A stretch of DNA of 64,000 nt from Minisyncoccia bacterium (GTDB lineage: Bacteria > Patescibacteriota > Minisyncoccia > 2-02-FULL-40-12 > IGHO2-01-FULL-4-A). The notes under the pieces were generated by a model that had not been told where the DNA came from, did no database searches, and worked only from the letters and a program-made list of their open reading frames with translations. The stretch spans positions 34,683 to 98,682 of the forward strand of contig JBEKBN010000001.1 of NCBI GenBank assembly GCA_050015375.1, read 5' to 3'. The position numbers were made by a program, and so were the translations under genes. Below are positions 654 to 53,371 of this stretch, piece after piece (within the stretch, counting starts at the first letter, position 1; each line of letters begins with the position of its first letter).

Positions 654-1671
654 AATCGTTTTGGGCATTCTGGTTTTCATAACCGGCTTTTTGGTTATCC
701 GGGTTGGCTCCGTCCTGACAAGCAAAGTCAAGCTCGCCGACACCACCGCCAGTATTGCCGGCGCCATCAGCAATAACGGCGACTTCACGCCGGTGGACCC
801 GATGACCGTCGATTCCGATCATGATGGCCTTCCGGATCGGGAGGAAATAATTTACGGCACCGACCCTAATAATCCCGACACCGACGGTGACGGTTTTACG
901 GATGGCGAAGAGGTAGCGGCCGGCACTGATCCATTGGATCCGAATGACAACATAGCGACTAGAAAAGCCGGCACCAGCACCGGCAGTTTATCCTTGGTCT
1001 CACCCACGGCGAATTTGACCGACCGCCTCTTGAATACGGGCCTGGCATCTTTGATAGATGATTCGGGCAATCTGAATCCTGACGCCATGACCGACCAAAA
1101 ATACGCCGATATTTTAAATACTATAAACGCCGCCGCCGCCGCCGGACTCGCGCCGACGACGATCGCTGATAGCGACATCAAGATCATTAGCGACAACAGC
1201 CCGGCGGCCATTACCAAATACATCAACACCGTTTCTTCAATAATTGAAGAAGGAATATTTGGTCCCACCGGCGCGATGATAACCGGTACGTCCGACGACA
1301 TCATCGGTTTATCCCAAAATGAAAATTATTATCAAAATAAATATAACGCCTTGAAAGTCATTGAGGTGCCGTCGTCGTGGAAGGAAATAGACAAAACGAC
1401 TTTGACCAGTTTGCAATCTTTGGCCAATGCTACCAAAGCTCTCACACCCGATGCAATAAATTCCGACCCGGTCATGGCTAGTTATGCTTTGAATCAACTC
1501 CAGAACGCATTTTTAACCCTAACTGACTTGATCAGCCAAGCATGCAGTTTGGCCCAATCCCAGAATGTCCCGATCAAGGATTCAATTTTTGATATGCTGA
1601 AAGCCGTCAATGTATCGGCTTCTCCGACACCTCAGATTTCTGCAACACCTCAAGTTTCTCCGATACCATAA
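637..1671 (+). CDS. membrane-anchored secreted protein with thrombospondin-type-3-like Ca-binding repeats
   Basis: N-terminal TM helix (LGILVFITGFLVI), then DSDHDGLPDREE / DPNNPDTDGDGFTDGEE / DPLDPND aspartate-rich repeats. Start overlaps the lnt stop. Confidence 0.5.
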   Translation: MSNRLKIVLGILVFITGFLVIRVGSVLTSKVKLADTTASIAGAISNNGDFTPVDPMTVDSDHDGLPDREEIIYGTDPNNPDTDGDGFTDGEEVAAGTDPLDPNDNIATRKAGTSTGSLSLVSPTANLTDRLLNTGLASLIDDSGNLNPDAMTDQKYADILNTINAAAAAGLAPTTIADSDIKIISDNSPAAITKYINTVSSIIEEGIFGPTGAMITGTSDDIIGLSQNENYYQNKYNALKVIEVPSSWKEIDKTTLTSLQSLANATKALTPDAINSDPVMASYALNQLQNAFLTLTDLISQACSLAQSQNVPIKDSIFDMLKAVNVSASPTPQISATPQVSPIP

Positions 1672-1677
1672 TAAGCT

Positions 1678-3060
1678 ATGGCCAAATTTAAAAAAATCTT
1701 CGCTTCAGTTGTCATCGCCTTTTTGATTTTTGATCTCCTAGTAATTTCATCGAAAAATGCCCAGGCTGCTGCTTTTATCGGTGACCCTTTGGAATTCACC
1801 AAACAATACATAATTTACCCTCTCGTCAGAGCAATTGCCAATTCGTTTGAAAGTATTCTTATCAACAAACTCAATCAACAGATAATCGGCGCTAACGGCG
1901 CCGTGCCATCGTTCATCACCAACTGGCGCAACCATCTTTTGGATTCCGAGGCCCGAGGCAATGATGTTTTCCGCTCGGTTCTGGCTGATGCAAATATCTG
2001 CGGTTTTATGTCGAGTAACATTAAGACGGCTTTCGGCGCCGATCTGTTCGCCGGTTCGATCGCCGGCGCGACCGTGAAGGACGCCAGCGGCAAAGTCGTC
2101 TACACCAACGAGACCAATGTGCCGGGCATGGCCTCTTTCCAGGAATCGGCGAAGTGTACCCTGCCGGCAAATTTTGATGTCAATGCCTTCAATCAGGATT
2201 TTTCTAAAGGCGGCTGGGCGGCCTGGGATCAAATGCTTGAGCCCCAGAACAATCTTTTCGGCATCTACACAATGGCTTTGGGTGAACAGCAAGCTCAGAT
2301 CGCCACCGAGCAAACCTCGACTATGAACTCGGCTGTCGCCGGCAATGGATTTTTGTCAAGCAAGTTGGGCAATGCCGTGGGTTCGGCTCTAGGAGTAAGC
2401 GGATCAGCTACCGGGCCGACCGGTTGCGTTGACACGGCCGGAACCCTGTCCGGTGGGGTCCAGGGCCCTACCATGACTACCCGTTGCACCTTCATGGGTA
2501 AGGATGTTACGCCAGGTTTTCTTAAAGCTGGCGGCGCCGGTTCGGCGATAGGCACAAAAATCGGCCAACCTCAAGCAGCTAAAGAAATTACGGATGTTGT
2601 GTTGAGTCTTTTTAATGACGTGCTTAAGGTGGTCGCGGACGCGACCGGCTCGGTTGGCAACTATCTGGGTCAAGCATCATACGACGCGACTGTCGGCTCC
2701 TTACCTGGCTTTAGCGAAACCCAGAAACAAGCCGGCGCCAGCGACACCCAGATCAATCAGGTCCAGCAACAGGTCAATCAAACCTCGGCTCAACTCGGTC
2801 AAAAAGAAAGCGCTACGGCAAGCGCCGCCAGTGGCACTTGCAGTTCGACTTGCATGGCTACCAAAGCGACGACCTGCACAACTAACAACCAGGTCACCAC
2901 TTGCAACCCAGTGACCGATCCCGTAACCGGCCAGACAACACAAAGTTGCCAGACCAGCACCGACCCAACCGGCTACAACGCCTGCATGGCCCAAGCCCAG
3001 ACCGATTGTAACGCTCAATGCCCGGTCGTGCCTACAGTAAGTATTCCGCCTCCGCCCTAA
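1678..3060 (+). CDS. secreted Gly-rich protein with Thr/Cys-rich C-terminal tail, hypothetical
   Basis: Signal peptide MAKFKKIFASVVIAFLIFDLLVISSKNAQA. C-terminus TCSSTCMATKATTCTTNNQVTTCNPV...CNAQCP. First gene of the T4SS-like block. Confidence 0.45.
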   Translation: MAKFKKIFASVVIAFLIFDLLVISSKNAQAAAFIGDPLEFTKQYIIYPLVRAIANSFESILINKLNQQIIGANGAVPSFITNWRNHLLDSEARGNDVFRSVLADANICGFMSSNIKTAFGADLFAGSIAGATVKDASGKVVYTNETNVPGMASFQESAKCTLPANFDVNAFNQDFSKGGWAAWDQMLEPQNNLFGIYTMALGEQQAQIATEQTSTMNSAVAGNGFLSSKLGNAVGSALGVSGSATGPTGCVDTAGTLSGGVQGPTMTTRCTFMGKDVTPGFLKAGGAGSAIGTKIGQPQAAKEITDVVLSLFNDVLKVVADATGSVGNYLGQASYDATVGSLPGFSETQKQAGASDTQINQVQQQVNQTSAQLGQKESATASAASGTCSSTCMATKATTCTTNNQVTTCNPVTDPVTGQTTQSCQTSTDPTGYNACMAQAQTDCNAQCPVVPTVSIPPPP

Positions 3061-3067
3061 GACCTAA

Positions 3068-5230
3068 ATGCGACTATTTAAAATAAGCAAAAAAATCATT
3101 CCGATAATAGTCATCGTCGCGATGCTGATTTTGATTTTGCCCCAGCATCAAGCGAAGGCGGATCTTCCGGGCCTTGGTAGCATGGCAATAGGCGGCGTCG
3201 CGAGTTGGATAATGAACACAATCATCACAGGAGTGGGTACAGCGATTAGTTGGTCAGCTGGGCTTTTGGATTCTTTCATCGGCATGACTTCTTTTAACCC
3301 CCCATCCCAAGTTCAGGACAGTTGGAAAATGATTCGTGATTTCGTAAACATGTTTTTTATCCTGGTTCTGGTTATTATGGCATTCGGCACGATATTCGAT
3401 CTCCAAAAATATAACTATAAAACATTACTTTCGAGTTTTCTAATTGCTGCGATTTTTGTGAATTTTAGCTATGCAATCGGCATTTATATCTGGAACATCT
3501 CCAATGGCCTCGCTCATATTTTTTTGAGCACGATTCAGGGCGCAAGTAACCAAAGCGTGAGCGCAATCCTTGGCAACGGGCTAAGCTTGGGTCATTTTGT
3601 GACTTGGAACGGAGGCAATGCCGTAAATATCAGCGGCATTTCCAGCACGACAAGCATCGGGGCAGGTTCACCAATAATTACTTCCGTCTTCTTTATAGTA
3701 TTTTTAGTGATGGCTTTGATGGCAATCTTGTCGGCCGCTATTTTTGCTTTCATCAGAATCCCGTTCATCTGGTTCTTTCTTATCATTTCTCCAATCGCAT
3801 GGTTAAGTTATGCCCTGCCTAGCATGCGAAGCGCCGGTTGGAGCAAATGGTGGAAAAATTTTTTAGGCTGGTGTTTCTTTTTGCCGATTTATCTTTTTTT
3901 CCTGATGTTCGCCGTGATTTTTATTCATGTCAAGGACTCGAAAATTACCGAGATCGCAAAACAGCAGGCATTTTTGGCAGGCCCGCAGGCGCAATATGGC
4001 AACACTATGGCTGGGTTATTCCAGGCCATCGGTTTGAACGATATCTTCTTTTTTGTCGTAACGATTATTATCATGGTTTACGGATTGGCCATGGCGAAAA
4101 CGGTTGCCTTCGCGGGTGGTAGCCGAGCCATGAAAATTTTCGGTGGCATTGAGAACGGGGTCAAGCGCTACTTCCCGGGTTCGAGAACGGCACGAGGTAT
4201 ATACGCAGGTGCAAAGCAGGGATATGAGGCCAGAGTCGAAAGAGCCAAGACCGAGGGCGTTGGTTTTGGACGATTTAGAATTGGCGGTGAGAGTAAACTA
4301 AAAGGGACAATTGCCGAAATGGGCGGTTTTGGTGAAAGAGGGGCCAGAGAAAAACAGTTCGCCGCCGAAGTTAAAAAATTAAAAGAATCGATGGCAAATA
4401 TCGGCGATATCGAGCGTATCAGAAAAATGTCTCAGTCTGGCTCGGCTTACCAACAGCTTGCTGCAGCCGAAATACTCAGAGAAAGAAATGCGATGTCCGG
4501 CCAGGAGATGATTGATACGTACAAAAAATACCGAGAGAATAAGGCGTATGTTTCCGCGACTAGATTTATCAGTAGTGTAGACTTCAAGGATCTATCTGGG
4601 GAAGAAAGACGTGCCATCAACGCGAATCTGAATGTTACAGATCTTGAAGCTAAAAGAAAAATCGCCAAAGTCATGGCAGAAAAGGGCGACTTTAAGGCAC
4701 CACTGGGAACACCGGATAATATGAAAGTTCAAGCCGTCGCCGACCAGATTACTAAGGCCGCCGAATTGTTTGCTACGGCTGGGGACAGATTGGATATCTT
4801 GCAGAAAGCGAAGAAAGGTAACATCGAAGCAGCTGCTATAGCCACTGTTAATCTTAAGATACAGGATAAGGATGGGAATATTATTAAAACCACCGATGAC
4901 GCTATCACTAAGCTATTCATTGATTCTATCAGAAAAGCAAAGGTTGACGATATGATCGATCTTTCAAAGGAAACCCTCGCGAATGAGGAAGTAAAAAAGA
5001 TAATTCTGGATAAATTAGACAGAGATTTTCGGACAAAAAATGATTTTATGAATCGAGCAACTGATAAACAAAAAATGGCATTGGGTCTTCCTACTGGCCA
5101 ACAACCACCGCAGACATTCAATGTGGGCGAGGGAATTAGTAGCAATGTGGAACGAGACGGAAATCCGAAAGTAATTCTCGCTTCCGAAAATAATGTCATC
5201 GACCTCCGCAATAAATCTGGCGATGATTAA
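3068..5230 (+). CDS. polytopic membrane protein, VirB6/TrbL-like (putative T4SS channel component)
   Basis: 720 aa. N-terminal signal/TM, then about 6-7 hydrophobic helices in the first 300 aa, and a long charged C-terminal domain. Position upstream of VirB3-like/VirB4 genes. Confidence 0.4.
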   Translation: MRLFKISKKIIPIIVIVAMLILILPQHQAKADLPGLGSMAIGGVASWIMNTIITGVGTAISWSAGLLDSFIGMTSFNPPSQVQDSWKMIRDFVNMFFILVLVIMAFGTIFDLQKYNYKTLLSSFLIAAIFVNFSYAIGIYIWNISNGLAHIFLSTIQGASNQSVSAILGNGLSLGHFVTWNGGNAVNISGISSTTSIGAGSPIITSVFFIVFLVMALMAILSAAIFAFIRIPFIWFFLIISPIAWLSYALPSMRSAGWSKWWKNFLGWCFFLPIYLFFLMFAVIFIHVKDSKITEIAKQQAFLAGPQAQYGNTMAGLFQAIGLNDIFFFVVTIIIMVYGLAMAKTVAFAGGSRAMKIFGGIENGVKRYFPGSRTARGIYAGAKQGYEARVERAKTEGVGFGRFRIGGESKLKGTIAEMGGFGERGAREKQFAAEVKKLKESMANIGDIERIRKMSQSGSAYQQLAAAEILRERNAMSGQEMIDTYKKYRENKAYVSATRFISSVDFKDLSGEERRAINANLNVTDLEAKRKIAKVMAEKGDFKAPLGTPDNMKVQAVADQITKAAELFATAGDRLDILQKAKKGNIEAAAIATVNLKIQDKDGNIIKTTDDAITKLFIDSIRKAKVDDMIDLSKETLANEEVKKIILDKLDRDFRTKNDFMNRATDKQKMALGLPTGQQPPQTFNVGEGISSNVERDGNPKVILASENNVIDLRNKSGDD

Positions 5231-13918: not shown

Positions 13919-15289
13919 ATGACCAACGACGAGCTTTGGAAGGCCGTACTGAGCGAGATGGAAGTTTCTCTTTCAAGGGCTAATTTTACGACTTGGTTCA
14001 AGGGAACCACGATCGTTTCAAATTCGAACGGCGCCGTTTTGGTCAGCGTCCCCAATGGTTTTGTCAAAGAGTGGCTCGAAAATAAGTTTAATAAGCAAAT
14101 CTTCAAAGTGGTCCAGAATTACCACCCCGAGATCCGCGAGATAAAATATGCCGTCGGCAATAACCGCTCCCATTCTATCTTACCTAAAAAAGATTTTGCC
14201 CAATTCATTCCCGAGAAGATGGTTGACGACAGGTCCGATGCCGACATCGACAAGGTCACCAACCTCAACAAGCGCTACACTTTCGACTCCTACGTCATCG
14301 GCTCGAACAATGAGCTGGCTCACGCGGCCAGTTTGTCGGTGGCCAAAACCCCGGGCAAATTGTACAATCCGCTTTTCATCTACGGCGGGGTGGGGCTTGG
14401 CAAGACCCATCTCCTTCAGGCCACCGGCAATTTCATTTGTTCCAGATTCCCCGACAAAAAGGTTTCCTACATCTCTTCGGAACGGCTGACCTCGGACATT
14501 GTCGAATCCATCAAAAACCGGACTATCGAAGAGATGAAGCAACGCTATGCCAAACTTGATCTTCTTATCATCGACGATATTCAATTCATCGCCGGCAAAG
14601 AAAAGACCCAGGACATATTTTTCTCCACCTTCAACGAGCTTTATGGCAAGAACAAACAGATCGTCCTTTCTTCCGACCGGCCGCCGAGCGCCATTCCGGC
14701 CCTCGAAGCCCGACTGCGGTCGCGGTTCGAAGGCGGCATGCTGGCTGACATCGGCGCCCCAGATTATGAAACCCGCCTGGCAATACTTAAGATCAAAGCC
14801 AAAGAAAAGATCTTCGATATCGACAACGATTCTCTTTCATATATCGCCACCAATATCCAGAAGAATATCCGGGAACTTGAAGGCGCCCTGAACCGGATCA
14901 TCGCTTTCAGCCAGATCTACAATAAAGTTCCCAACCTCAAAGAGGTCAAAAAATTATTAGCGGCATATTTAAGCACGCCCTTCCGGAAAACCACTTATCA
15001 GTCCATCCTGAAATCAGTCGCCGATTTTTATGGCGTTTCTCTCAATGACCTGACCAAGAGGAGCCGGAAAAAAGAAGTGGTCCGGCCCCGCCAGGTGGCT
15101 ATGTTTTTGCTCCGCGAGGAAGCCAAATTGTCTTTTCCCGAGATCGGCTCCAAGCTTGGCGGCCGCGATCATTCCACGGCCATTCACGCCTATGAAAAGA
15201 TAAAAAAAGAAGAGGATGGAAACGAGAACACCAAACAGGAATTGGTTTTGATCAAAGAACGGCTTTATCAATCATTTGAAAGTTCGTAA
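13919..15289 (+). CDS. dnaA: chromosomal replication initiator DnaA
   Basis: Walker A GGVGLGKTHLLQA; Walker B LLIIDDIQF; sensor II and DnaA-box-binding C-terminal helix-turn-helix (VAMFLLRE...LGGRDHSTAIHA). Confidence 0.95.
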   Translation: MTNDELWKAVLSEMEVSLSRANFTTWFKGTTIVSNSNGAVLVSVPNGFVKEWLENKFNKQIFKVVQNYHPEIREIKYAVGNNRSHSILPKKDFAQFIPEKMVDDRSDADIDKVTNLNKRYTFDSYVIGSNNELAHAASLSVAKTPGKLYNPLFIYGGVGLGKTHLLQATGNFICSRFPDKKVSYISSERLTSDIVESIKNRTIEEMKQRYAKLDLLIIDDIQFIAGKEKTQDIFFSTFNELYGKNKQIVLSSDRPPSAIPALEARLRSRFEGGMLADIGAPDYETRLAILKIKAKEKIFDIDNDSLSYIATNIQKNIRELEGALNRIIAFSQIYNKVPNLKEVKKLLAAYLSTPFRKTTYQSILKSVADFYGVSLNDLTKRSRKKEVVRPRQVAMFLLREEAKLSFPEIGSKLGGRDHSTAIHAYEKIKKEEDGNENTKQELVLIKERLYQSFESS

Positions 15290-15522: not shown

Positions 15523-16611
15523 ATGAATATAATTATTAACAGACAAAAACTTCAGTCGGCGCTTGGCGTGGTCGAGAAAATAATTTCCAAGAATGTTTCT
15601 TTGCCGATCCTCAATACCATTTTACTTAAAACCGAGAACGGCCGGCTGAAATTGTCGGCTACTAATTTGGAAATGGGCATCAAGTACTGGGTCGGCGCCA
15701 AAATAAACAAAGAAGGCGAAGTCGCCGTGCCCGCCAGAGTATTTTCTGATTTCATCAGCAACGTCAATGACGAAAAACTGAATCTGTCGGTGGAAAAAAA
15801 CGTCATTTCCATAAATTCTGAGCATTACAAAACCCAAATTCTGGGTCTTGATACCAAAGAATATCCGATCCTGCCCAAAGCCAAGAATGCCGTCGAATTC
15901 AAGATTTCCAGCTCGACCCTGAAGAATTCTCTGGCGTCGGTATTCGATTCCTCCTCGCTTTCCGAAACCAGACCGGAGATCGCCGGCGTCCTTTTGAATG
16001 TCGGCAAAAACAAAGCCGAATTCGCCGCCACCGACAGTTTTCGCCTGGCCGAGAAAATAATTGACGTCCGGGACGGCATAGACCGTTCAATGATCATTCC
16101 CCGGACGACGGCCTTGGAATTGATGCGGATCTCGGAAGGCGCCGAACAGGAATTGACTCTGGCGGTGGCCGACAATCAGCTTTTCGTTTCAGGCGAGGAT
16201 TTTGAATTCGTTTCCCGGCTCATTGACGGCCATTACCCGGAATACAAAAAAGTCATTCCCGAACGATTCGTGGCTTTGGCCAAAGTTGATAAGGCCGAAT
16301 TTGAGAGAAATATCCGGATGGCCAGCGTTTTTTCTTCCAATGTTTTTGATATCAAACTCAAAGCCGCCGGCAACCTGCTCCAAATAAAAGCCCAAAACAA
16401 CGATCGCGGGGAGATCCTGACCAACATTCCCTGCCTGGTGAAAGACGGACCGTTCGAGGTTTCGGTCAATTATCATTATCTTTTGGATGGCATCAAATCA
16501 ATTCCGACGGCCAATCTCATCATCCAATTCACCGGCGACGGCAGTCCTTTGGTTCTCAAAGGCGAAGAGAAAAAAGACCAGACGTATATCATAATGCCGT
16601 TGAGGGGCTAA
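15523..16611 (+). CDS. dnaN: DNA polymerase III beta sliding clamp
   Basis: 362 aa. MNIIINRQKLQSALGVVEKIISKNVSLPILNTILLKTENGRLKLSATNLEMGIKYW typical DnaN N-terminus. Confidence 0.9.
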   Translation: MNIIINRQKLQSALGVVEKIISKNVSLPILNTILLKTENGRLKLSATNLEMGIKYWVGAKINKEGEVAVPARVFSDFISNVNDEKLNLSVEKNVISINSEHYKTQILGLDTKEYPILPKAKNAVEFKISSSTLKNSLASVFDSSSLSETRPEIAGVLLNVGKNKAEFAATDSFRLAEKIIDVRDGIDRSMIIPRTTALELMRISEGAEQELTLAVADNQLFVSGEDFEFVSRLIDGHYPEYKKVIPERFVALAKVDKAEFERNIRMASVFSSNVFDIKLKAAGNLLQIKAQNNDRGEILTNIPCLVKDGPFEVSVNYHYLLDGIKSIPTANLIIQFTGDGSPLVLKGEEKKDQTYIIMPLRG

Positions 16612-22576: not shown

Positions 22577-23560
22577 ATGGCGGAAAAAGAACCAAAAAAG
22601 GGAGAAATAGTCATCTACAAAACCTCAAAAGGGCCGGAGTTGGAAGTTAAGTTGGAGAAGGAAACCATTTGGCTGACGCAGGCGCAGATTGCTTTACTTT
22701 TTGATTCAGAAAGAAGCGTTATCACAAAACATCTAAACAACATATTCGAAGAAGGCGAGATTGATCAGAAAAGCAATGTGCAAAAAATGCACATTGCAAA
22801 TTCTGATAAGCCCGTGGCATTTTATAGCCTCGATGTCATAATCTCCGTCGGTTATCGGGTCAATTCAAAAAGCGCAACCCAGTTCAGGATTTGGGCGACG
22901 AGAACCCTCAAACAGCATCTCATCCAGGGATATACCATCAATGAAAAAAGATTGCTGAACGCAAGGGCGAAATTCGCCGAACTCCAAAGCGCCATTTTGT
23001 TTTTAAGCGAGAAATCAAAACACGAACTTCTTGGCGGACAAGAACAGGAAATATTGAACCTGCTTTCAATCTATTCGAAGACCCTTACCCTCCTTGAGCA
23101 ATACGATACCAATAAGCTCAAAACCGTTTCCGGCAAAAAAGCCAAGTTCGTTTTAGATTACGCAAAATCAAAAAAGATAATCGAAGATGTTGGAGTCGGA
23201 TTGGCCTCAATGGGAGGCGCAGGGGATTTGTTCGGCCAAGAATATACGGGTAAATTGGAGGCCATTGTCAAAAACCTCTATCAAACATATGACGGCAAAG
23301 AACTCTATGACACCATTGAGGAAAAAGCCGCCCATCTTTTATACCTAACCATCAAAGACCATCCTTTCGCTGACGGCAATAAAAGAATCGCCTCATTTTT
23401 GTTTGTTTATTATTTGGACAAAAATAGCTATCTTTACAAAGAAACCGGCGAAAAGAAGATTAACGACAATGCTCTGGTAGCCCTAGCCCTGTTGATTGCG
23501 GTCAGCAAACCACTCGAGAAAGATGTTATGATAAAAATAATCATGAATTTGTTGGTTTAA
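22577..23560 (+). CDS. Fic/DOC-family protein with RhuM-like N-terminal domain
   Basis: Fic motif HPFADGNKRIASFLFVYYL (HPFx[DE]GNxR). N-terminal region ...WLTQAQIALLFDSERSVITKHLNNIFEEGE... typical of RhuM-type proteins. Confidence 0.75.
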   Translation: MAEKEPKKGEIVIYKTSKGPELEVKLEKETIWLTQAQIALLFDSERSVITKHLNNIFEEGEIDQKSNVQKMHIANSDKPVAFYSLDVIISVGYRVNSKSATQFRIWATRTLKQHLIQGYTINEKRLLNARAKFAELQSAILFLSEKSKHELLGGQEQEILNLLSIYSKTLTLLEQYDTNKLKTVSGKKAKFVLDYAKSKKIIEDVGVGLASMGGAGDLFGQEYTGKLEAIVKNLYQTYDGKELYDTIEEKAAHLLYLTIKDHPFADGNKRIASFLFVYYLDKNSYLYKETGEKKINDNALVALALLIAVSKPLEKDVMIKIIMNLLV

Positions 23561-23629
23561 TTTCCATTCGCCCGGAAAGAGTTTCCCCGGGCCCGTCGGA
23601 GGATTGAAAAAATCCGGGGGAGATGTAAA

Positions 23630-24058
23630 ATGAAGGGGAATCTGGCGGCTCGATCTATGGGAAACACCTACCTCTCGTATCAGCAATTAAAAAAACCATC
23701 ATGGTCTCCGCCGAGCTGGCTTTTCGGCCCGGTCTGGACGGCGCTTTATATTTTAATCGTCATTTCCTTCGGTTACACCGGCTGGCTGTTTTTCAACGGT
23801 AAAATTTCCTTCCTCATCCTTTTGCCGTTCATCCTGAATCTAATTTTCAATTTTTCTTTTACCACTATCCAATTCAAACTCAAGAATAATCTGCTGGCGG
23901 CCGCCGACATCTTGCTTGTCTTAGCCACTCTCATCTGGGCCATGGTTGCCATCTATTTTGACGTCCGCTGGATCGCCTATCTCCAAATACCATATTTTCT
24001 CTGGGTTTCCTTCGCGACCATACTGCAACTGACAGTTACATATTTAAACCGGGAATAA
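23630..24058 (+). CDS. tspO: TspO/MBR-family tryptophan-rich sensory protein
   Basis: KPSWSPPSWLFGPVWTALYILIVISFGYTGWL; 5 TM helices, Trp-rich. Confidence 0.7.
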   Translation: MKGNLAARSMGNTYLSYQQLKKPSWSPPSWLFGPVWTALYILIVISFGYTGWLFFNGKISFLILLPFILNLIFNFSFTTIQFKLKNNLLAAADILLVLATLIWAMVAIYFDVRWIAYLQIPYFLWVSFATILQLTVTYLNRE

Positions 24059-24251
24059 ACACTTCGGACAACGAAAGATATTATTCTGAATGGCCCCGAC
24101 CCGCCGGAACCGTTGACCCTCACACCAAATTTTGGTGTGCGGGTTGATTTTTTGAGCAAAAAGTGGAATAGTTTGTGTTTGAACCGAGAAAAGAGTAGAA
24201 TGGAAGCCGGGTATTTAAATCGTAATATTAATTTTTTAAATCAAATTTCAC

Positions 24252-24800
24252 ATGAATATCAAAGATGTAAAAACAGCAATAAAGGTTGGTGATTTTGTAT
24301 TGAGGAAAAATCATAGAAATAAAATAGATATCAAATATTTATCTAGTTTAAGCAGTGACATACTTACTGATAATTCGGCCAGGGTTTATTTAATAATTCA
24401 AGACGAGATTATTAAGAAAATCGGAGGCTCTGCTTCAAAAGGGGGAATTAAGGCAACAATGGCATTCTATGTTTCAGCCATGGAAGGAAGTCCGGGCGTC
24501 CCCAGGTTTGTTCTTCACCTCCTTATTGAAAGAGCTCTAATTGGCAAATCAAAAATGGAATTATACATGATAACTTCTCCTAAAACACTTGCCAGGGTCA
24601 GTGGCTTATTCGGCTATAAGAAAGTAAAAATTGCAAGTTTTAAGGAGATGGAGGATTTATGCAAATCCGATTATTTTTCGATAGAAAAGAAATATCCCGA
24701 TTGGAATTTCCAAGAAAATCACCAACCGTATCCTCCTGACTTGGCAAAAGAGCATAATTTATACCACCAAAGACGGCTCAAAAATAAACTTAAATTTTAG
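24252..24800 (+). CDS. hypothetical protein (AT-rich gene, convergent with lexA-dam fusion)
   Basis: 182-aa ORF at very low GC; no motif recognised. Confidence 0.35.
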   Translation: MNIKDVKTAIKVGDFVLRKNHRNKIDIKYLSSLSSDILTDNSARVYLIIQDEIIKKIGGSASKGGIKATMAFYVSAMEGSPGVPRFVLHLLIERALIGKSKMELYMITSPKTLARVSGLFGYKKVKIASFKEMEDLCKSDYFSIEKKYPDWNFQENHQPYPPDLAKEHNLYHQRRLKNKLKF

Positions 24801-26328
24801 GTGGACAGAAAATAATTATCTCGTGAGACTCTTTTATGTGATTCCCATTACCATTCCTTCGATTCAATCCTATTCTGGTTTCCCCTTGGCCCATAGTGTA
24901 TTGCCATGAAGGGAAAAGTTGCTGAAATTCCTTGTAATGTTCTTTTATCGTCGGGCAGTTATTATATGAGAGGATGAATCCTCCTTTATGATTTTTTAAC
25001 AAATCTCGCAAATCCTCATGAGGGAATCCCTTATGATGAACAGGTATATTTCTCATCGGATAGATCCCTTTAAACATTTTTGAATCTTTACCTATGTAAT
25101 AAGGGGGATCGCAATACAAAAAATCGTCGGGGTGATCTCTAATGACATCCCTAAAATCCGCACACTCAACTTTAAGATTATTGGGATCAAAATCTCGGAT
25201 ATTTTCAATTGTCCTCTTATATTTTTTGTCATTCAAATAAATGTCAGATGACCAGCCCATAAACCCTGGGCCATATGATAAATTGAAGTTGTAAACATAA
25301 TAGACAGCCAAAGTTAGCGGATCTAGTTTAACTTTCTTTTTCCACACATCATTCAATATTAATCTAATTCTTTCAAATGTTTCCTTGTTTGGTTTCAACT
25401 CTTTCAATTTTTTATAAAGAAGTTTTGGTTTATTAATCTGAAACCCCCAGTAATTACAGAGAATATCAAAAATATCATAACCAATAACTTCCAGGCCGAG
25501 TTCTTTACTCATGGCTATTTCGATTGAACCACCGCCGAAAAACGGTGATACAACCCTTTTTATATTCTCTGGCAGTAACTCAACTATATGACCCACGGCT
25601 AAACTTTTTCCACCCGCATATCTTATGGGGGAAAGAGCAACTCTTTTGTATTTGTTCTGACTGTCCGGATTAGAACTTCTGATACGGTCTAAGAAAGTTT
25701 TTTTTCTGAGCGCTAATGTATTGTTCTTATTGCCATTTTCCAAATTTCTTATAATTTTGATTACGATACCCCGGATCTCTAATTCTTTACGATAGATCGG
25801 CAATATTTCCTGATTTGCCGGTTGTAATCTAAAGCGTCCACTTTCTCGATAGATTTTTTTTAGGGTCGCCTTATCGTCATCAATAATTGCTACTACAGTT
25901 TGACCATCATCGGCGGTTTTTTGCTCACGAATTACCACGGTATCCCCGTCAAATATCCCATCGTTAATCATGCTATTGCCCGACACTCTTAATGCATAGT
26001 GCCTGCCAGCAATTGGAATTTCAGTCTGGGGAATAAAGATATTTTCTCCGTGCATCTCAAGCGCTTCAATCGGTTGACCAGCGGCAATTGTCCCGAGGAG
26101 GGGGATACGGACCAGTTTAGTCGAGGTTTTGACAATTTGAATTCCTCGCGCGCGGCCGTTAGCTTTTTCCAGATATCCCTTGTCCTGCAGGATCATCAGA
26201 TGTTCGTGTGCCGTTGACGGCGAAATCCTAAGTCGGCGGGCAATTTCACGTTCGGTCGGAGCGATGCCTTTTTTTGCGATGACTTTATCCACAAGATCTT
26301 TCACTTGTTTCTGTCTTGGTGTGAGCAT
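24790..26328 (-). CDS. LexA-like repressor (HTH + S24 peptidase) fused to Dam-type N6-adenine DNA methyltransferase
   Basis: N-terminus MLTPRQKQVKDLVDKVIAKKGIAPTEREIARRLRISPSTAHEHL (LexA HTH). ...VSGNSMINDGIFDGDTVVI...TLKKIY (S24 Ser/Lys dyad). Linker, then SPIRYAGGKSLAVGHIVELLP...SPFFGGGS (motif I) and LYCDPPYYIGK (DPPY motif IV) of D12-class Dam MTases. One uninterrupted 512-517-aa ORF. Confidence 0.65.
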   Translation of the reverse strand: MLTPRQKQVKDLVDKVIAKKGIAPTEREIARRLRISPSTAHEHLMILQDKGYLEKANGRARGIQIVKTSTKLVRIPLLGTIAAGQPIEALEMHGENIFIPQTEIPIAGRHYALRVSGNSMINDGIFDGDTVVIREQKTADDGQTVVAIIDDDKATLKKIYRESGRFRLQPANQEILPIYRKELEIRGIVIKIIRNLENGNKNNTLALRKKTFLDRIRSSNPDSQNKYKRVALSPIRYAGGKSLAVGHIVELLPENIKRVVSPFFGGGSIEIAMSKELGLEVIGYDIFDILCNYWGFQINKPKLLYKKLKELKPNKETFERIRLILNDVWKKKVKLDPLTLAVYYVYNFNLSYGPGFMGWSSDIYLNDKKYKRTIENIRDFDPNNLKVECADFRDVIRDHPDDFLYCDPPYYIGKDSKMFKGIYPMRNIPVHHKGFPHEDLRDLLKNHKGGFILSYNNCPTIKEHYKEFQQLFPSWQYTMGQGETRIGLNRRNGNGNHIKESHEIIIFCPPKI

Positions 26329-26343
26329 ATTATAATTATACAA

Positions 26344-26395
26344 TATATACCCGAGCAGAACCCGAGCAGTTATCCACAGTCAATTATTGAATCAA
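26344..26395 (-). promoter_or_regulatory. putative leaderless promoter/operator of the lexA-dam gene
   Basis: Minus strand: TGTGGATAA (perfect DnaA-box 9-mer), then CTGCTCGGGTT-CTGCTCGGGT tandem direct repeat, then TATAAT ending 5 nt before the ATG. No Shine-Dalgarno sequence. Confidence 0.4.
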
Positions 26396-26502
26396 ATTAT
26401 GAAGAGAGTATTATTGTATGTTAAATTATTAATTAAAATAACTATCGTACGAAAAGGGCTTCAAACAAAACCCTTTCAGTAGGGTAGTGAAAATTAATCT
26501 CA

Positions 26503-27015
26503 ATGTACAAAAATATTCATAATTTCGTTCCATTTCAACATGACAATCAAGATTTTAAAAACAAACTAATAGGTTTTGCACGCAACCAAGATAAGATAAA
26601 AATTGAAGGTGTTTTTACGGCAACTCTAATCTATACAAACCTCGTTGATTATTTAGCTACGAACCTGTTCGATAATCTAAATAAAATGTTATCAATTTTT
26701 ACATTTAAAAAATTTGGTGGCGTTTTTCATCTAGATACATCCCAAAAAAGGACCCATTTATCAGTCGGAGAGTTACAGAGAGAATTAAGTTATTTCGAAT
26801 TTCCAAATCGAAATGATTTTTTGGCATGTTTAGAAGAATTCAGGAGGCTCCGAAATGAAGTTATGCATAATCTCATGGGAGTTGATCCCAACGACACAAC
26901 AATGAAACTTGATAAGGGTTTAGCGAGGATTGCAGAGATTTCCGAAGATATTCTAGCGAAATATAATGTGATTTGTGCAGGGCTTATAACTATTTGGAAT
27001 AACGCCAACGCTTAA
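26503..27015 (+). CDS. hypothetical protein
   Basis: 170-aa ORF in the AT-rich island; no motif recognised. Confidence 0.35.
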   Translation: MYKNIHNFVPFQHDNQDFKNKLIGFARNQDKIKIEGVFTATLIYTNLVDYLATNLFDNLNKMLSIFTFKKFGGVFHLDTSQKRTHLSVGELQRELSYFEFPNRNDFLACLEEFRRLRNEVMHNLMGVDPNDTTMKLDKGLARIAEISEDILAKYNVICAGLITIWNNANA

Positions 27016-27053
27016 AGGAGTAATATAATTAATCAAGAAAGGAGGTAAATAAT

Positions 27054-27281
27054 ATGCATAGGCAAAATAAACAAGTAATAGAATATATTCTGCTCATTTC
27101 AATTATTATATTACCCTTTGTCGCGGGGTATATATTTAATGATTACAAAATACCAGCATTTCTCTTTTTGCTTGGTACTGCTCTGTTTCATGTTGTCAGA
27201 GAAAGGATTCAATCGAATATAAGCGGAGAGGGGGTCAGAAAAATTACAGTGGGTAGCAAAGCACCCCCTGGATCCAGCTAA
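27054..27281 (+). CDS. small 2-TM membrane protein
   Basis: Strong Shine-Dalgarno AAAGGAGGT 8 nt upstream; two hydrophobic helices. Confidence 0.4.
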   Translation: MHRQNKQVIEYILLISIIILPFVAGYIFNDYKIPAFLFLLGTALFHVVRERIQSNISGEGVRKITVGSKAPPGSS

Positions 27282-27364
27282 AGGTGATTTATGGCTTAAA
27301 ACAAAAGACTGACATGGATAGCGAAAATCGTACAGCTTGGATTGAGGGAAAAACAGTGCGATAA

Positions 27365-27850
27365 TTGATTGTCATGGAAAGCACAACAACATTTGTTCGG
27401 GATTTAATTAAGGGTCGGATTGCAGAAACGATTTTTGAAATGATGTTTCGGGAAACCGGAAAATTTACCATTCTCCGTTTTGGCTATGAATATACCCAGC
27501 CGGAACTCGCCCAGTACAAACATTATTTAAGATTACCGGAAGCCATCGAAAATATAGATAATTCCCCGGACTTTATTTTGTTATCGAATGATAAAACAAA
27601 AGTATATTTAGTTGAAGTAAAATACAGATCAAGTTTTGACTCAGACAAGATAAAAGTGATTGCCCAAAGCATTGCTTCAAGATGGCATTCCCCATACTTA
27701 TTTATCGCTACTCCAAAGGGTTTCTTTTTTGAACCATGCAATACAATCATCAAAAATAATGGAAACATCGGGCAATTATTTGATAATAAAGTGCCAAAAG
27801 AAATCCAAGAGAAATACCTAGAACTACTCAATGAATTTGAAAGAAAATAA
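27365..27850 (+). CDS. hypothetical protein with PD-(D/E)xK-like motif (module 1 large gene)
   Basis: ...SPDFILLSNDKTKVYLVEVKYRS... fits the PD...(D/E)xK nuclease signature. Central region shares HSPYLFIATPKG ~ HIYLFAPAHVAG with the 27968 gene. Confidence 0.4.
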   Translation: MIVMESTTTFVRDLIKGRIAETIFEMMFRETGKFTILRFGYEYTQPELAQYKHYLRLPEAIENIDNSPDFILLSNDKTKVYLVEVKYRSSFDSDKIKVIAQSIASRWHSPYLFIATPKGFFFEPCNTIIKNNGNIGQLFDNKVPKEIQEKYLELLNEFERK

Positions 27851-27859
27851 CGCCAACTT

Positions 27860-27958
27860 GTGATCCGGAAAATCAAAAATAAATATGTGGTTTTGTCCGA
27901 GAACGGCGAGCGGAAATTCGAGAGGTATAAATTTGAAAAAGCGATCAAACAGAAGTAA
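27860..27958 (+). CDS. tiny conserved ORF (module 1), VIRKIKNKYVVLSENGERKF-family
   Basis: 32 codons from GTG 27860. The peptide is nearly identical to the N-terminus of the 28438 ORF, while the DNA differs at synonymous positions. Confidence 0.4.
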   Translation: MIRKIKNKYVVLSENGERKFERYKFEKAIKQK

Positions 27959-27967
27959 AATTAAGGC

Positions 27968-28396
27968 GTGGGGAAAATAATAAAAATATCTGAAAAGCTG
28001 TATCAATTCAGGGATGAGACGGCCCTGATCATAGTTGCGGCCAAGCAGGAAGGCCGCGTTTTTCGCGCCGGCAACGGCGAACTCGAGCTTCTGGAAAAAT
28101 TCCGCGTCTCCACACCGCACTTTTCCGACAATGAAGGAATGTCGCAGGAGCGTGGACGTCGGGAAAATATCATTGAGGAAAACATCCATCACGAATACTT
28201 TGAGCATTTCCAAAAACTTTTGCGTTCCCTCGCGCCCCGTCTCAAGCCGACCCATATTTATCTCTTCGCTCCGGCTCATGTGGCAGGGGAGCTGGAGAAT
28301 ATCGTGAGACCGATCTTCGGCGCTCTGGCCGTCAGAACCGTCACCGGTATTTTCACCAAAGACACGCCGGTTGAATTCCTTGAACGGCTTCATTGA
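27968..28396 (+). CDS. hypothetical protein, divergent paralogue of 27365 gene (module 2 large gene)
   Basis: 142 aa; SLAPRLKPTHIYLFAPAHVAGELE aligns with SIASRWHSPYLFIATPKGFFFE of the upstream gene. Higher GC. Confidence 0.4.
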   Translation: MGKIIKISEKLYQFRDETALIIVAAKQEGRVFRAGNGELELLEKFRVSTPHFSDNEGMSQERGRRENIIEENIHHEYFEHFQKLLRSLAPRLKPTHIYLFAPAHVAGELENIVRPIFGALAVRTVTGIFTKDTPVEFLERLH

Positions 28397-28437
28397 GCCA
28401 GTGATTCATCGGGAACAAAAAATCAGAAAACTATTTC

Positions 28438-28578
28438 ATGATAAGAAAGATAAAAAACAAATACGTCGTCCTGTCGGAGAATTCGGGGCGGAAGTTCGGG
28501 AGTTACCGGACTCTAAAGGAAGCCAAAAAGCGCCTCCGCCAAGTTGAGTTCTTCAAGCACCGGAAATTCAAAAAATAG
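28438..28578 (+). CDS. tiny conserved ORF (module 2), MIRKIKNKYVVLSENSGRKF-family
   Basis: 46 codons, ATG 28438 to TAG 28576-78. Not in the supplied ORF track (<60 aa). Confidence 0.4.
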   Translation: MIRKIKNKYVVLSENSGRKFGSYRTLKEAKKRLRQVEFFKHRKFKK

Positions 28579-28686
28579 CCGCAGGGCTATTTTTTGATGA
28601 TTTGACATAATATCTTAAATCAGGTAATTTTAATCAGTTTTTATAACGCAGTTAGGACTGGGTTTTAGGCCCAAAGAAGGAGGTTT

Positions 28687-29358
28687 ATGGGGTGTGTTCC
28701 TTGGACAATAAAAGAGGTGAATTTTCTCCGCCGTCTTGTTAATAGCCAGAAATTAAGCTCCGGTAAAATTTATCGCAATTGTTATTTCGTCGGCAGGAGT
28801 CTCGCGTCGATAAACAGCCAAATGTCTTGTCTTGGCTTGAGCAGTCTGGCCACGAAAGGGCGAATGAAAAATAGCTGGCGGCTGAGCAAAGAGGAAAAGG
28901 AAAAACTCTCTGTTTTTTTAAATGGTGAAGGAAGGCACATGCCGAACAGCGATGTTGCCAAAATTCTCGAGACCAGCGTCCGGAATGTCAGAAGATATCG
29001 CCGCCGGTGGAAGTTAAAACTTAACCCCAAAGAATCCTTCTCCTCGAAAATATTCAAGCGAACGCACAAAAGGTCTATCGTGGCATTAAAGAATGGCTAC
29101 GCCGATTATCGCGAGAGACGCCCAATGAGGCGCCGGGCCGAATTGGTTGAACTATTCCGACAATTGGCCGAATCTCGTTGTAAAATTCCACACCGGAAAT
29201 GCAAGGATTGCGGCGAGTGGTGGTTTGACTCGGAAATATTTTTTTATCACGCGAGAATCATGGCAAATAACAAACTCCGCTTGTCGAATCATTGCAAGGC
29301 CTGCGGATTTCCATGGATAAACAAGAAGAGAGCCAAAGCAAAAAAAGTTGCCGCCTGA
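28687..29358 (+). CDS. basic protein with C-terminal Cys4 zinc-ribbon, hypothetical DNA/RNA-binding
   Basis: Shine-Dalgarno AAGGAGG. Arg/Lys-rich. CKDCGEWW...NHCKACG zinc ribbon. Confidence 0.4.
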   Translation: MGCVPWTIKEVNFLRRLVNSQKLSSGKIYRNCYFVGRSLASINSQMSCLGLSSLATKGRMKNSWRLSKEEKEKLSVFLNGEGRHMPNSDVAKILETSVRNVRRYRRRWKLKLNPKESFSSKIFKRTHKRSIVALKNGYADYRERRPMRRRAELVELFRQLAESRCKIPHRKCKDCGEWWFDSEIFFYHARIMANNKLRLSNHCKACGFPWINKKRAKAKKVAA

Positions 29359-48628: not shown

Positions 48629-49309
48629 TTATACGATACCCGCGTTTTTTTCAAATGAAACTTCTTGATATAATTCTATCCAACGCAATATTTTTTGCAA
48701 TAATTTCTTATTATGGACAATAACATTACATACTCCGTTTGATAGTCTTTTTGTCGGATGCCTGCCAACAATAGTAACCGACTTTTTGAATTGTTGCAAC
48801 GGTATAGCAACCAACTTAGACCAAAATCTTTTTTGTATTTCATCGTTTAAATCCGGGTATAAGAGAAGCCGTAAAAATATTTCTTCTCTTGGGATGCTGA
48901 CTGCTTCATGTAGAAATCTGTAAAATATCCTGATCATTCCCGGGTCAGAATTACTGAGACCAACGCTACCATGTTTCAAAATTCTAGCTCCTTCGCCCCA
49001 ATAAAGCATTACGCCGGAGATAAAAAGCGGATCAAATTTCTTGATCTTAAATTCAAGTTCTGCTTCTTTTCTGTATTCCTCATGAATTAAAGCCCATTTC
49101 TTTTTTGTAGCCGCAACCATTAACCTGAGTTTCTTTGGCGAAGAAAAGGAAGCTTCACTCGCGAGTTTGTTTTTTATCTCTTGCGACCAAGATAAATCTT
49201 TAAACCAACCACAAAGCGTGGCAGTAGGAATTCCTAGTTTTCGGGAGATTTCCTTATAGCTTTTATTTTTTCTTCTCAATTCAAGAGCTTTTTCCTTGTC
49301 GTTTCTCAT
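48629..49309 (-). CDS. HTH + LAGLIDADG-like (degenerate, single-motif) homing-endonuclease-like protein
   Basis: N-terminal HTH ...YKEISRKLGIPTATLCGWFKD; LYWGEGAR segment in LAGLIDADG position; paralogue of the 49659 gene. AT-rich; flanks tRNA genes. Confidence 0.4.
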   Translation of the reverse strand: MRNDKEKALELRRKNKSYKEISRKLGIPTATLCGWFKDLSWSQEIKNKLASEASFSSPKKLRLMVAATKKKWALIHEEYRKEAELEFKIKKFDPLFISGVMLYWGEGARILKHGSVGLSNSDPGMIRIFYRFLHEAVSIPREEIFLRLLLYPDLNDEIQKRFWSKLVAIPLQQFKKSVTIVGRHPTKRLSNGVCNVIVHNKKLLQKILRWIELYQEVSFEKNAGIV

Positions 49310-49507
49310 GTTTGTGGATAAGTTATCAAACTGCCTGTTGATAGTATAGATTTATTATACAACGGGGTTCAAAAAATGAAAGTCCGTTTTGTGGATAAGC
49401 CAAAGAGAAAGTGCATAAACGAAAAACCGTCAATTTAATGACGGTTTTTCCGATGTGCCGTGGGTCAAAATTAAAACAGGCAAAAGCTTGTTTTAATTCT
49501 TGATTTG

Positions 49508-53292: not shown

Positions 53293-53297
53293 AATTG

Positions 53298-53371
53298 TGC
53301 GCGTGCCTGGACTCGAACCAGGGACCCCGTCTTTATAAGAGACGTGCTCTAACCGACTGAGCTACACGCGC
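53298..53371 (-). tRNA. tRNA-Ile (anticodon TAT; reads AUA)
   Basis: Acceptor GCGCGTG/CACGCGC, D-arm GCTC-AGTCGGTTA-GAGC (Ile-like), anticodon arm CGTCT-CTTATAA-AGACG, T-arm CCTGG-TTCGAGT-CCAGG, discriminator A. Confidence 0.6.

Follow-up and report, generated by a model that had tools for sequence, protein, structure and literature searches.

A 64,000-nucleotide stretch from a Minisyncoccia bacterium (GenBank assembly GCA_050015375.1, contig JBEKBN010000001.1, positions 34,683 to 98,682) encodes on its minus strand a single protein of 512 residues in which an entire LexA repressor is fused in frame to a D12-class N6-adenine DNA methyltransferase (MTase). The window means this whole stretch throughout, and coordinates are counted from its first letter; Minisyncoccia is a class of the Candidate Phyla Radiation (CPR). 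It is probable, in our assessment, that this open reading frame (ORF) is the modification methylase of a two-gene, mobile Type II restriction-modification (R-M) cassette and that it carries a cleavage-competent LexA together with its promoter-operator. This explanation is built on the fusion itself and its catalytic residues, on the structure of the cassette and the fold of the nuclease encoded beside it, and on an operator that co-varies with the recognition helix, an adjoining DnaA-type box and the exchange of modules between loci.

A LexA Repressor Joined to a D12 Methyltransferase

The minus strand is open over 24790..26343 for 517 residues counted from a TTG and for 512 from the ATG at 26328. 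The ATG gives the N-terminus MLTPRQKQ and is the start found in all homologues; the upstream TTG was rejected as a start codon because it falls within the TATAAT elements of the promoter. Since no Met occurs in residues 121-272, the methylase can be produced only as a fusion. Pfam places LexA_DNA_bind at residues 2-62 (3e-17), Peptidase_S24 at residues 76-190 (3e-26) and MethyltransfD12 (PF02086) at residues 237-479 (1.2e-33, over the whole profile, 1-253 of 253), and the nearest solved structures are those of LexA proteins for residues 2-195 and of DpnM-like methylases for residues 226-481. An earlier sequence-only reading of this DNA had proposed an in-frame LexA and N6-adenine MTase within one ORF lying in an AT-rich island. 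The uninterrupted frame, the full-length Pfam domains and the Pfam and NCBIfam profile searches for LexA and D12 bear this out, as does the GC content of the island (0.365 against about 0.47). No second lexA and no second MTase is present within the 64-kb window.

The possibility that two neighbouring genes were merged by a sequencing or assembly frameshift is negligible, and independent assemblies already refute it. The same continuous three-domain ORF, with no break between the domains, occurs in more than 120 clusters and in 72 independently assembled loci, from independent samples and assemblers. In addition, the junction segment (residues 197-232) is conserved and matches the N-terminus of stand-alone MTases.

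Residues 1-200 exceed the cutoff of the NCBIfam LexA equivalog TIGR00498 (181.7 against 110.95 bits, positions 4-202 of 203), and the Pfam families PF01726 (winged helix-turn-helix) and PF00717 (S24) together span the full length of the LexA half, which matches the T. maritima LexA structure 3K2Z at 5e-36 and is 37% identical to E. coli LexA. In the latter alignment, Ala83-Gly84 of the fusion corresponds to Ala84-Gly85, Ser119 to Ser119 and Lys157 to Lys156. The architecture initially read from the sequence, complete with a cleavage site and the Ser/Lys dyad of S24 peptidases, is thus upheld, and the N-terminal part is not merely an XRE-type helix-turn-helix (HTH) domain. Gly84, Ser119 and Lys157 are unchanged in 118 orthologous fusions, and the Ala-Gly bond, the Ser and the Lys are unchanged in all 42 fusions with other MTases that represent 50%-identity clusters. 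This constancy across orthologues and across fusions to five methylase families argues for selection on self-cleavage while the repressor is fused.

It is also conceivable, though quite unlikely, that the LexA part is blind to RecA and acts as a mere DNA-binding and dimerisation module, much like an attached C protein or an SsoII-type repressor, the conserved Ser, Lys and Ala-Gly then being due to a recent origin or to self-processing that is slow and constitutive. Plain HTH repressors at the N-terminus of MTases indeed work without a protease (PMC2760811, PMC3978073), and the operator/promoter logic described below can be explained without cleavage. However, such a module does not readily account for catalytic residues that are invariant in the 42 five-family representatives and in the 118 orthologues, whose mean pairwise identity is 69% in the LexA half and 85% in the MTase half.

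Cleavage at Ala83-Gly84 is predicted to split off an 83-residue DNA-binding domain (DBD) and to leave the S24 domain on the MTase (residues 84-512). The suggestion that cleavage would release the methylase therefore has to be recast, as the predicted cut instead detaches the DBD.

The MTase half matches the PADLOC Type II MTase profile PDLC03281 end to end (4.6e-110, 6-306 of 309), and the length of this profile, 309, is also that of stand-alone MTases. The FGGGS motif I and DPPY motif IV that had been recognised are both present, at residues 264-268 and 407-410 (nt 25099-25110), respectively, and conserved: among the 118 orthologous fusions, G265, S268 and DPPY are invariant, and the remainder of motif I is at least 90% conserved. 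The description of the enzyme as a Dam-like D12 methyltransferase is right as to D12, given the full-profile match, but overstated as to Dam. The score against the Dam subfamily TIGR00571 (58.4 bits) falls far below the cutoff of 114.85, and GATC is not depleted in the window, at an observed/expected ratio of 0.99 that is only weak evidence against Dam specificity.

The Convergent Nuclease and the Two-Gene Cassette

The fusion gene converges with a gene for a 182-residue protein, which the sequence-only reading had considered a possible cognate nuclease while seeing no recognisable restriction endonuclease (REase) motif in it. Sequence searches of PDB, Pfam, NCBIfam and PADLOC returned nothing significant for this protein, and its assignment to the GIY-YIG family comes from fold comparison, which alone among the searches resolved it and gave the GIY-YIG alpha/beta fold. 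Its invariant residues R44, Y46, K55-K56-I57-G58-G59-S60, E134 and N152 fit the GIY-YIG motif pattern. A homologue in H. pylori matches a PADLOC REase profile (1.9e-4), and NCBI gives H. pylori homologues the name GIY-YIG nuclease or type II restriction endonuclease. With this fold, these names and the conserved pairing of the two genes, the idea of a cognate nuclease is strengthened, and the statement that the protein lacks REase features no longer holds.

Four unrelated genomic contexts have nothing in common but the fusion gene and a convergent gene of some 180 codons, whose products are 74-84% identical among themselves. The GIY-YIG gene is convergent with the fusion gene in 59 of 72 loci, mostly across a gap of 2 nt, where the window has an 11-nt overlap. 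Three of the other 13 loci are cut by the contig end, one has no room left on the contig, one holds a decayed fragment and eight have a different convergent gene, of about 260 codons. Such conservation of an MTase-nuclease pair across genomic contexts characterises Type II R-M systems, and an unfused pair of the two genes is present in DPANN archaea and in H. pylori. No ORF in the cassette corresponds to a separate small C gene with C-boxes, as found in R-M systems of the C-protein type, and neither the operator nor the DnaA-type box described below occurs in any of 35 nuclease upstream regions.

The partner of about 260 residues accompanies eight more divergent D12 fusions (L124, L127, L128, L144, L149, L014, L016). 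It carries the motif ...KKDVID...IHSVKSG..KKWQIFLYG, has no Pfam or PADLOC match, and may be a PD-(D/E)xK-type nuclease standing in place of the GIY-YIG enzyme. On the plus strand of the window, a terminator-like hairpin with a T-rich tail (24970-24983) lies about 170 nt beyond the nuclease stop codon, within the 3′ end of the methylase gene; this consensus match could end the nuclease transcript. No comparable terminator signal for the methylase transcript was found inside the nuclease gene.

Neither the window nor a 165-kb pool of cassette loci showed k-mer depletion that would point consistently to one target as the recognition sequence of the cassette. The ratios in window and pool are 0.99 and 0.52 for GATC, 0.38 (39 observed against 103 expected) and 0.73 for AGNCT, and 0.55 and 0.62 for GTAC; ACGT is also under-represented in the window (0.55). 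The depletion of AGNCT, GTAC and ACGT suggests other active R-M specificities in the genome, none of them assignable to the cassette.

Putative Operator, Promoter and Recognition Helix

A tandem direct repeat had been noticed upstream of the fusion gene and described as operator-like. It is present as CTGCTCGGGT-T-CTGCTCGGGT (Table 1), and the description is borne out by a conserved architecture, by copies that change together and by co-variation with the recognition helix. If the ATG is the transcription start, the repeat lies at about -41..-21. The fusion promoter has no -35 consensus, which is missing because the operator takes its place. A sigma-70 consensus scan missed this promoter, which has no -35. 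The scan also read the direct repeat as a terminator-like hairpin, a candidate that was rejected as its arms are direct, not inverted. The earlier statement that TATAAT stands 5 nt before the ATG needs correction, since there are two hexamers, at 6 nt (upstream hexamer) and 0 nt (downstream hexamer) from the start codon. With TATAAT ending 6 nt before the ATG and a similar spacing in about 18 of 47 orthologous promoters, the proposed leaderless start is plausible in the window and in about one third of these promoters. As reported before, no box of the form CTGT-N8-ACAG or CGAAC-N4-GTTCG is found near the gene.

The 47 non-redundant promoters of D12 fusions have a direct repeat, of 11-bp period, that adjoins or overlaps the -10 element. 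Its sequences among these loci include TTTCTAT, TTTCGAT, GTTCTA, TTTCGGT, TTCGGGT and CTCGGGT, the last being the rarer variant found in the window. The two copies are identical at 7/7 positions in 19 of 26 hand-checked loci, over seven different cores. The core follows one residue of the recognition helix, Glu42 in the fusion, which aligns with E. coli LexA Glu45, presumably a base-contacting residue in the LexA-DNA structure. At this position, F or Y goes with the core TTCTA(T/A) (27 of 30), Q or E with TCGG (13 of 13 classified), H with GTTCTA or TTCGAT, and K with TTTCGCT. The rule holds among DBDs that are merely 38-46% identical, and it also fits a stand-alone lexA and fusions to C5, beta-class and gamma-class methylases.

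The helix STAHEHL of the window and its repeat CTGCTCGGGT recur together on a beta-class MTase fusion, P0265 (locus L177), whose DBD is identical to that of the window at 48 of 60 positions and whose promoter reads TGTGGATAA-CTGCTCGGGGTTTGCTCGGGT...TATAAT. The window DBD is 32-55% identical to the DBDs of other D12 fusions, with MTase halves that are 80-90% identical. Because the window pair recurs on an unrelated MTase while the DBDs of its D12 relatives differ, the promoter-operator-DBD unit must have been exchanged by recombination.

These data also bear on a further alternative, in which the fusion would be the main SOS repressor of the organism, with a genome-wide regulon, and its methylase would alter the epigenome in the SOS state. 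The protein does pass the LexA equivalog cutoff, the 64-kb window contains no second lexA, and stand-alone lexA genes of Patescibacteria share its promoter design and operator types, so that cross-talk is conceivable. This alternative is nonetheless very unlikely. The gene and that of its nuclease form a mobile two-gene cassette that turns up in unrelated contexts and lies in an AT-rich island; across the window, a good operator match is found at the promoter of the fusion gene alone, the two-mismatch matches being intragenic, so that no multi-gene SOS regulon is evident there; the DBD is swapped between MTase families; and one contig (L149) has two fusions with different helices and operators. 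The coupling of methylation to a genome-wide SOS-like state, as first suggested, is accordingly replaced by the control of a mobile Type II R-M cassette as the right frame. The two fusion genes on L149 lie side by side (1501-4564) and combine helix HHH with GTTCTA and helix HKH with TTTCGCT, an arrangement that fits insulated specificities for cassettes sharing one cell. As regards insulation of another kind, the hairpin upstream of the cassette promoter in the window is possibly an insulator.

A DnaA-Type Box beside the Operator

The perfect DnaA-box 9-mer that had been pointed out upstream of the gene is confirmed: TGTGGATAA matches the TTATCCACA consensus exactly, and DnaA is encoded in the genome. 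The exact 9-mer is found in 33 of the 47 D12-fusion promoters, in either orientation and mostly just upstream of the repeat. Fusion promoters carry it at a density of 4.4 per kb, whereas the remainder of the same contigs has 0.015 per kb, which makes an enrichment of about 300-fold. It is absent upstream of unfused MTase homologues (0 of 80). Because the box is constant while helix and operator vary, a different, conserved protein should read it, and DnaA would be the simplest candidate. The window holds six exact copies of TGTGGATAA, including a pair at 49.3 kb, where about 0.5 would be expected by chance; this expectation is our own estimate, the shuffles having covered matches with up to one mismatch. 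The presence of the box beside LexA-type promoters suggests that replication initiation may be connected, in a way so far unstudied, with SOS/R-M control in CPR bacteria.

Table 1. Features of the cassette in the window, with strand and supporting evidence
Feature	Position	Strand	Basis or remark
LexA-MTase fusion gene	24790..26328	-	512 aa plus stop; ORF, Pfam/NCBIfam domains and homologues
LexA winged-HTH DNA-binding domain	26134..26328	-	aa 1-65; recognition helix SPSTAHEHL
Ala83-Gly84 codons, predicted self-cleavage bond	26077..26082	-	E. coli alignment, orthologue conservation
Peptidase S24 domain	25759..26103	-	aa 76-190; Ser119 at 25972-25974, Lys157 at 25858-25860
D12 (alpha-class) N6-adenine DNA methyltransferase	24811..25725	-	aa 202-506; Pfam, PADLOC PDLC03281
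GIY-YIG nuclease gene, putative cognate Type II restriction endonuclease	24252..24800	+	182 aa; fold comparison, homologues
Tail-to-tail overlap of fusion and nuclease genes	24790..24800	.	11 nt; no space for an intergenic terminator
Two tandem TATAAT hexamers	26329..26340	-	26340..26335 and 26334..26329
Putative LexA operator, direct repeat	26349..26369	-	11-bp period; copies 26369..26360 and 26358..26349
TGTGGATAA, perfect DnaA-box consensus	26370..26378	-	abuts operator, about -50..-42
Second TGTGGATAA, within coding region	26285..26293	-	+36..+44; specific to this window
Terminator-like hairpin with T-rich tail upstream of cassette promoter	26470..26485	-	consensus match only; similar hairpin before the box in L175

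A Model for the Control of the Cassette

In the mechanism that we favour, the fusion would dimerise via its S24 domain, bind the repeat in its own -35/spacer region and repress its own synthesis; we infer this binding and repression from the sites, their conservation and their co-variation with the helix. In a naive cell that contains no repressor, the MTase would be made first and at a high level. Because the two genes abut without a terminator, transcription of the methylase gene would continue antisense into the nuclease gene and damp its expression. As the fusion accumulates, its own promoter would close and the nuclease would be expressed. RecA filaments formed on single-stranded DNA upon damage, including breaks made by the cassette nuclease at unmethylated sites, would then trigger self-cleavage at Ala83-Gly84, which would split the DBD from the S24-MTase part, free the operator and lift the methylase-to-nuclease ratio. 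A damage-induced rise of the methylase relative to the nuclease is judged the most likely net effect, and the outcome would amount to a Type II form of damage-induced restriction alleviation. The TGTGGATAA box beside the operator would provide a second host input, most simply DnaA.

Several points weigh against this mechanism. Its components, from DNA binding and repression to RecA-dependent cleavage and the specificities of methylation and cleavage, are ones that we infer. Control of the nuclease appears to be indirect, since its promoter carries no operator, and no recA was found among the scanned ORFs of the 64-kb window. The co-variation of helix and operator could partly be co-inheritance, promoter and DBD being adjacent, and it has exceptions: TGTTCGG accompanies an F helix in L134, and for some E helices the core is CGGT and not CGGGT. 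A leaderless start is not universal, as many orthologous promoters have leaders of 20-50 nt. The full-length AlphaFold2 model of the fusion is poor (pLDDT, the predicted local distance difference test score, of 63.7) and uninformative on domain packing, including any hindrance by the MTase to dimerisation or to access of RecA. Finally, the sign of the response would flip if the S24-MTase fragment were degraded after cleavage.

It is this last condition that defines the main rival, with the opposite sign of response, which is unlikely but by no means negligible. In such a suicide or abortive-infection switch, degradation of the S24-MTase fragment after cleavage would make methylation fall, and the nuclease, being stable, would then kill the cell; the response to DNA damage or to RecA activation by a phage would amplify the damage or act as post-segregational killing, with no relief. 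The conserved cleavage machinery is compatible with this scenario, as is the location of cassettes among toxin and defence genes (Fic/Doc, AbiEii, HEPN-like). Furthermore, the predicted N-terminal fragment would end in ...GTIAA and resemble the VAA end of cleaved E. coli LexA. The latter is a ClpX signal, and in E. coli LexA fragments are degraded by ClpXP and Lon. However, cleavage would also derepress the promoter, so that synthesis would rise simultaneously; the switch would be slow, since loss of methylation matters only via replication; and no degron is assessable on the MTase-bearing fragment.

Spread of the Family and Other Methylase Partners

More than 120 clusters at 90% identity contain the same three domains and are 70-78% identical to the window fusion; their named members belong to Giovannonibacteria, Wolfebacteria and the 'Patescibacteria group'. 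In the species representatives of GTDB, the full-length protein is matched only in bins of Patescibacteria type, with the exception of a few contigs that are probably mis-binned. Contigs L014, L029 and L031, which carry a CPR-type cassette or MTase, are found in bins labelled Gammaproteobacteria or Pseudomonadales, probably through mis-binning. No fused homologue was found in IMG/VR, among the INPHARED phages or among the PLSDB plasmids. Homologues of the MTase half alone occur in DPANN archaea (70-78% identity) and in Helicobacter and Campylobacter (52-57%). The unfused MTases of CPR bacteria and DPANN archaea (Pace-, Woese- and Nanoarchaeota; L021-L041, L152-L167) share this identity of 70-78%, which points to recent exchange among ultra-small organisms. 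T4-like cyanophages (S-PM2, Sf-CH11) encode an MTase of 48-50% identity, sometimes beside a GIY-YIG nuclease (phage hits H9-H14).

LexA is also joined to methylases of other families. In an exhaustive search, dozens of representatives of 50%-identity clusters proved to be proteins of 430-840 residues, the first 200 or so of which are 45-59% identical to the LexA part of the window fusion. All 42 tested representatives carry LexA_DNA_bind and S24 ahead of a methylase domain, namely N6_N4_Mtase (30), Eco57I-type (6), D12 (4), N6_Mtase (4) and C5 (2). The named ones are all from Patescibacteria, with source labels that say just 'LexA repressor' or 'hypothetical'. The four further fusion classes examined in context all have a convergent gene at the 3′ end. 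In one class this gene encodes an Endonuclease_7 domain with a PADLOC Type II REase match (9e-19), and in another an endonuclease of the Alw26I/Eco31I/Esp3I family. The latter is found in L182 (4001-8800), where a LexA-Eco57I-type MTase of 841 residues is followed by a C5 MTase and the convergent endonuclease gene; this locus resembles a Type IIS system that has two methylases, both under the same LexA-type promoter.

Of the stand-alone LexA proteins, the closest (213 residues) is encoded in an operon with a DpnI-family methyl-dependent nuclease (L178 1125-2551; L179 743-2169). Its promoter has two copies of ATGTTCGGTAA as a repeat between two perfect TTATCCACA boxes. Because this lexA shares an operon with a DpnI-family enzyme, LexA-type control appears to extend to Type IIM/IV-like nucleases.

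The view that no LexA-MTase fusion had been described is sustained in part. No description was found in the literature searched, though a prior mention in work on the SOS response of Patescibacteria is possible; 'LexA' does not appear in a 2025 review of R-M systems (PMC12707154), nor do methylases or restriction in the Aravind paper on SOS peptidases. On the other hand, the fusion is not unique. The database search showed it to belong to a large family on at least five MTase families, from the D12 clusters to the 42 representatives, and such proteins, under names that say little, have been publicly deposited since 2012.

Comparison with Known Systems

M.SsoII and M.Ecl18kI repress their own gene via a plain N-terminal domain (PMC3978073, PMC2760811). 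Like these enzymes and M.EcoRII, the window fusion has an N-terminal DNA-binding domain fused to an MTase, with an operator at the promoter of its own gene (PMC3978073, PMC2760811, PMC12707154). In systems of the M.SsoII type, autorepression sets the balance of methylase to nuclease, and the architecture and site in the window match such a role. The differences lie in the fused domain, which is a short plain HTH of about 70 residues on C5 methylases in the M.SsoII type and an entire LexA with a self-cleaving S24 domain, found on at least five MTase families, in the present one. They also lie in the gene arrangement: R and M promoters are divergent or overlapping in M.SsoII-type systems, whereas the genes of the window converge and the nuclease promoter is without an operator. 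Antisense control is established in convergent R-M systems, and control of this kind is known for Eco29kI (PMC12707154).

With the canonical LexA proteins of E. coli and T. maritima (3K2Z), the LexA half shares the winged HTH, the cleavage-site region, the Ser-Lys dyad and an operator in its own promoter. In contrast to them, it bears a C-terminal enzyme of 315 residues and sits on a mobile R-M cassette, its operator is a direct repeat and not a palindrome, and the window gives no sign of a regulon other than its own gene. Direct-repeat operators are not foreign to LexA proteins: work by Sanchez-Osuna, Barbe and Erill in 2017 reportedly describes a Patescibacteria LexA with a direct-repeat binding motif, a likeness that concerns both the direct repeat and its 11-bp period. 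The alphaproteobacterial box is GTTC-N7-GTTC, and one class of orthologues has GTTCTA-N5-GTTCTA, which conforms to it.

In H. pylori, an unfused, co-directional pair of genes adjoining typA encodes a D12 MTase of 309 residues and a GIY-YIG nuclease of 204 residues; we take its position to be that of HP0481/HP0482. The MTase is 52-57% and the nuclease 39% identical to that of the window, and the H. pylori pair lacks LexA, the repeat operator and the TGTGGATAA box. A methylome paper on H. pylori gives ACGT for HP0483 and does not mention HP0481. As to R.Hpy188I, R.Eco29kI and T4 EndoII, a sequence comparison of the window nuclease with solved structures gave no significant match.

Damage-induced restriction alleviation of Type I systems relies on the degradation of HsdR by ClpXP (PMC12707154). 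The proposed outcome is alike, in that damage would lower restriction relative to modification. In the Type I route, a host protease degrades the restriction subunit, whereas the route proposed for the window would be transcriptional, through self-cleavage of the repressor carried by the methylase. The lambda CI repressor and SetR of integrative and conjugative elements offer another parallel, as mobile elements that sense host damage with a RecA-sensitive, self-cleaving S24 repressor; these repressors are stand-alone proteins that control lysis or transfer, with neither fusion to an enzyme nor control of R-M.

R-M systems must keep the methylase ahead of the nuclease when they enter a cell and when repair exposes unmethylated DNA. 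Known solutions comprise C proteins, MTases acting as plain repressors, antisense RNAs and post-damage proteolysis in Type I systems. Methylases with a fused repressor are thus already known; we could not find in the searched literature a description of a complete, self-cleaving LexA on at least five methylase families with a portable operator-promoter. A methylase bearing its own self-cleaving SOS sensor would solve the problem in a new and very compact way and tie restriction control directly to RecA; if the proposal is true, it would also be the first case of a LexA fused to an enzyme and of a Type II R-M system wired to SOS. CPR genomes are tiny and, to our knowledge, largely without CRISPR, which makes R-M regulation central to CPR biology.

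Tentatively, and with less confidence than in the cassette itself, the family may be taken to illustrate a general principle of R-M control. A portable unit made of DnaA-box, direct-repeat operator, leaderless promoter and LexA would have been grafted repeatedly onto unrelated methylases of Patescibacteria; damage sensed through RecA would cleave the repressor off the methylase and favour protection, and the diversified helix/operator pairs would insulate co-resident cassettes from one another and from the host SOS response. These pairs (F/Y, H, Q/E and K against the repeat cores) form a natural series of LexA specificities, which could be reused as a set of orthogonal, damage-inducible repressors.

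Other Features of the Window

In the AT-rich island around the cassette (22577-29358), neither an integrase nor a flanking tRNA was seen. Besides the cassette, it holds other genes that are defence- or toxin-like, namely a RhuM+Fic/Doc gene (22577-23560), a gene for a 170-residue protein with a weak CARF/HEPN match (26503-27015; PADLOC 4.5e-5), one for a 161-residue protein with a very weak REase_II match (27365-27850) and one for a 223-residue protein with a weak HTH match (28687-29358). A TspO/MBR gene lies near the cassette in three different loci (window 23630-24058, L005 746-1222, L177 1396-1818), the last of which has a different MTase class; this proximity may reflect a shared insertion neighbourhood or coincidence.

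The dnaA (13919-15289) and dnaN (15523-16611) genes are located at the cumulative GC-skew minimum of the window, and the spacer between them holds the one-mismatch DnaA boxes TTGTCCACA and TTATCAACA. The chromosomal origin thus probably lies about 10 kb from the cassette. At 49313-49398, two perfect TGTGGATAA boxes 77 bp apart, accompanied by degenerate copies, occupy the intergenic region between a 226-residue ORF (48629-49309, minus strand), whose start codon is 4 nt from a box, and a tRNA cluster; this site could be a DnaA-regulated promoter or a DnaA-box cluster. Finally, a tRNA-Ile gene with anticodon TAT (53297-53371) directly adjoins that of tRNA-Val(TAC).

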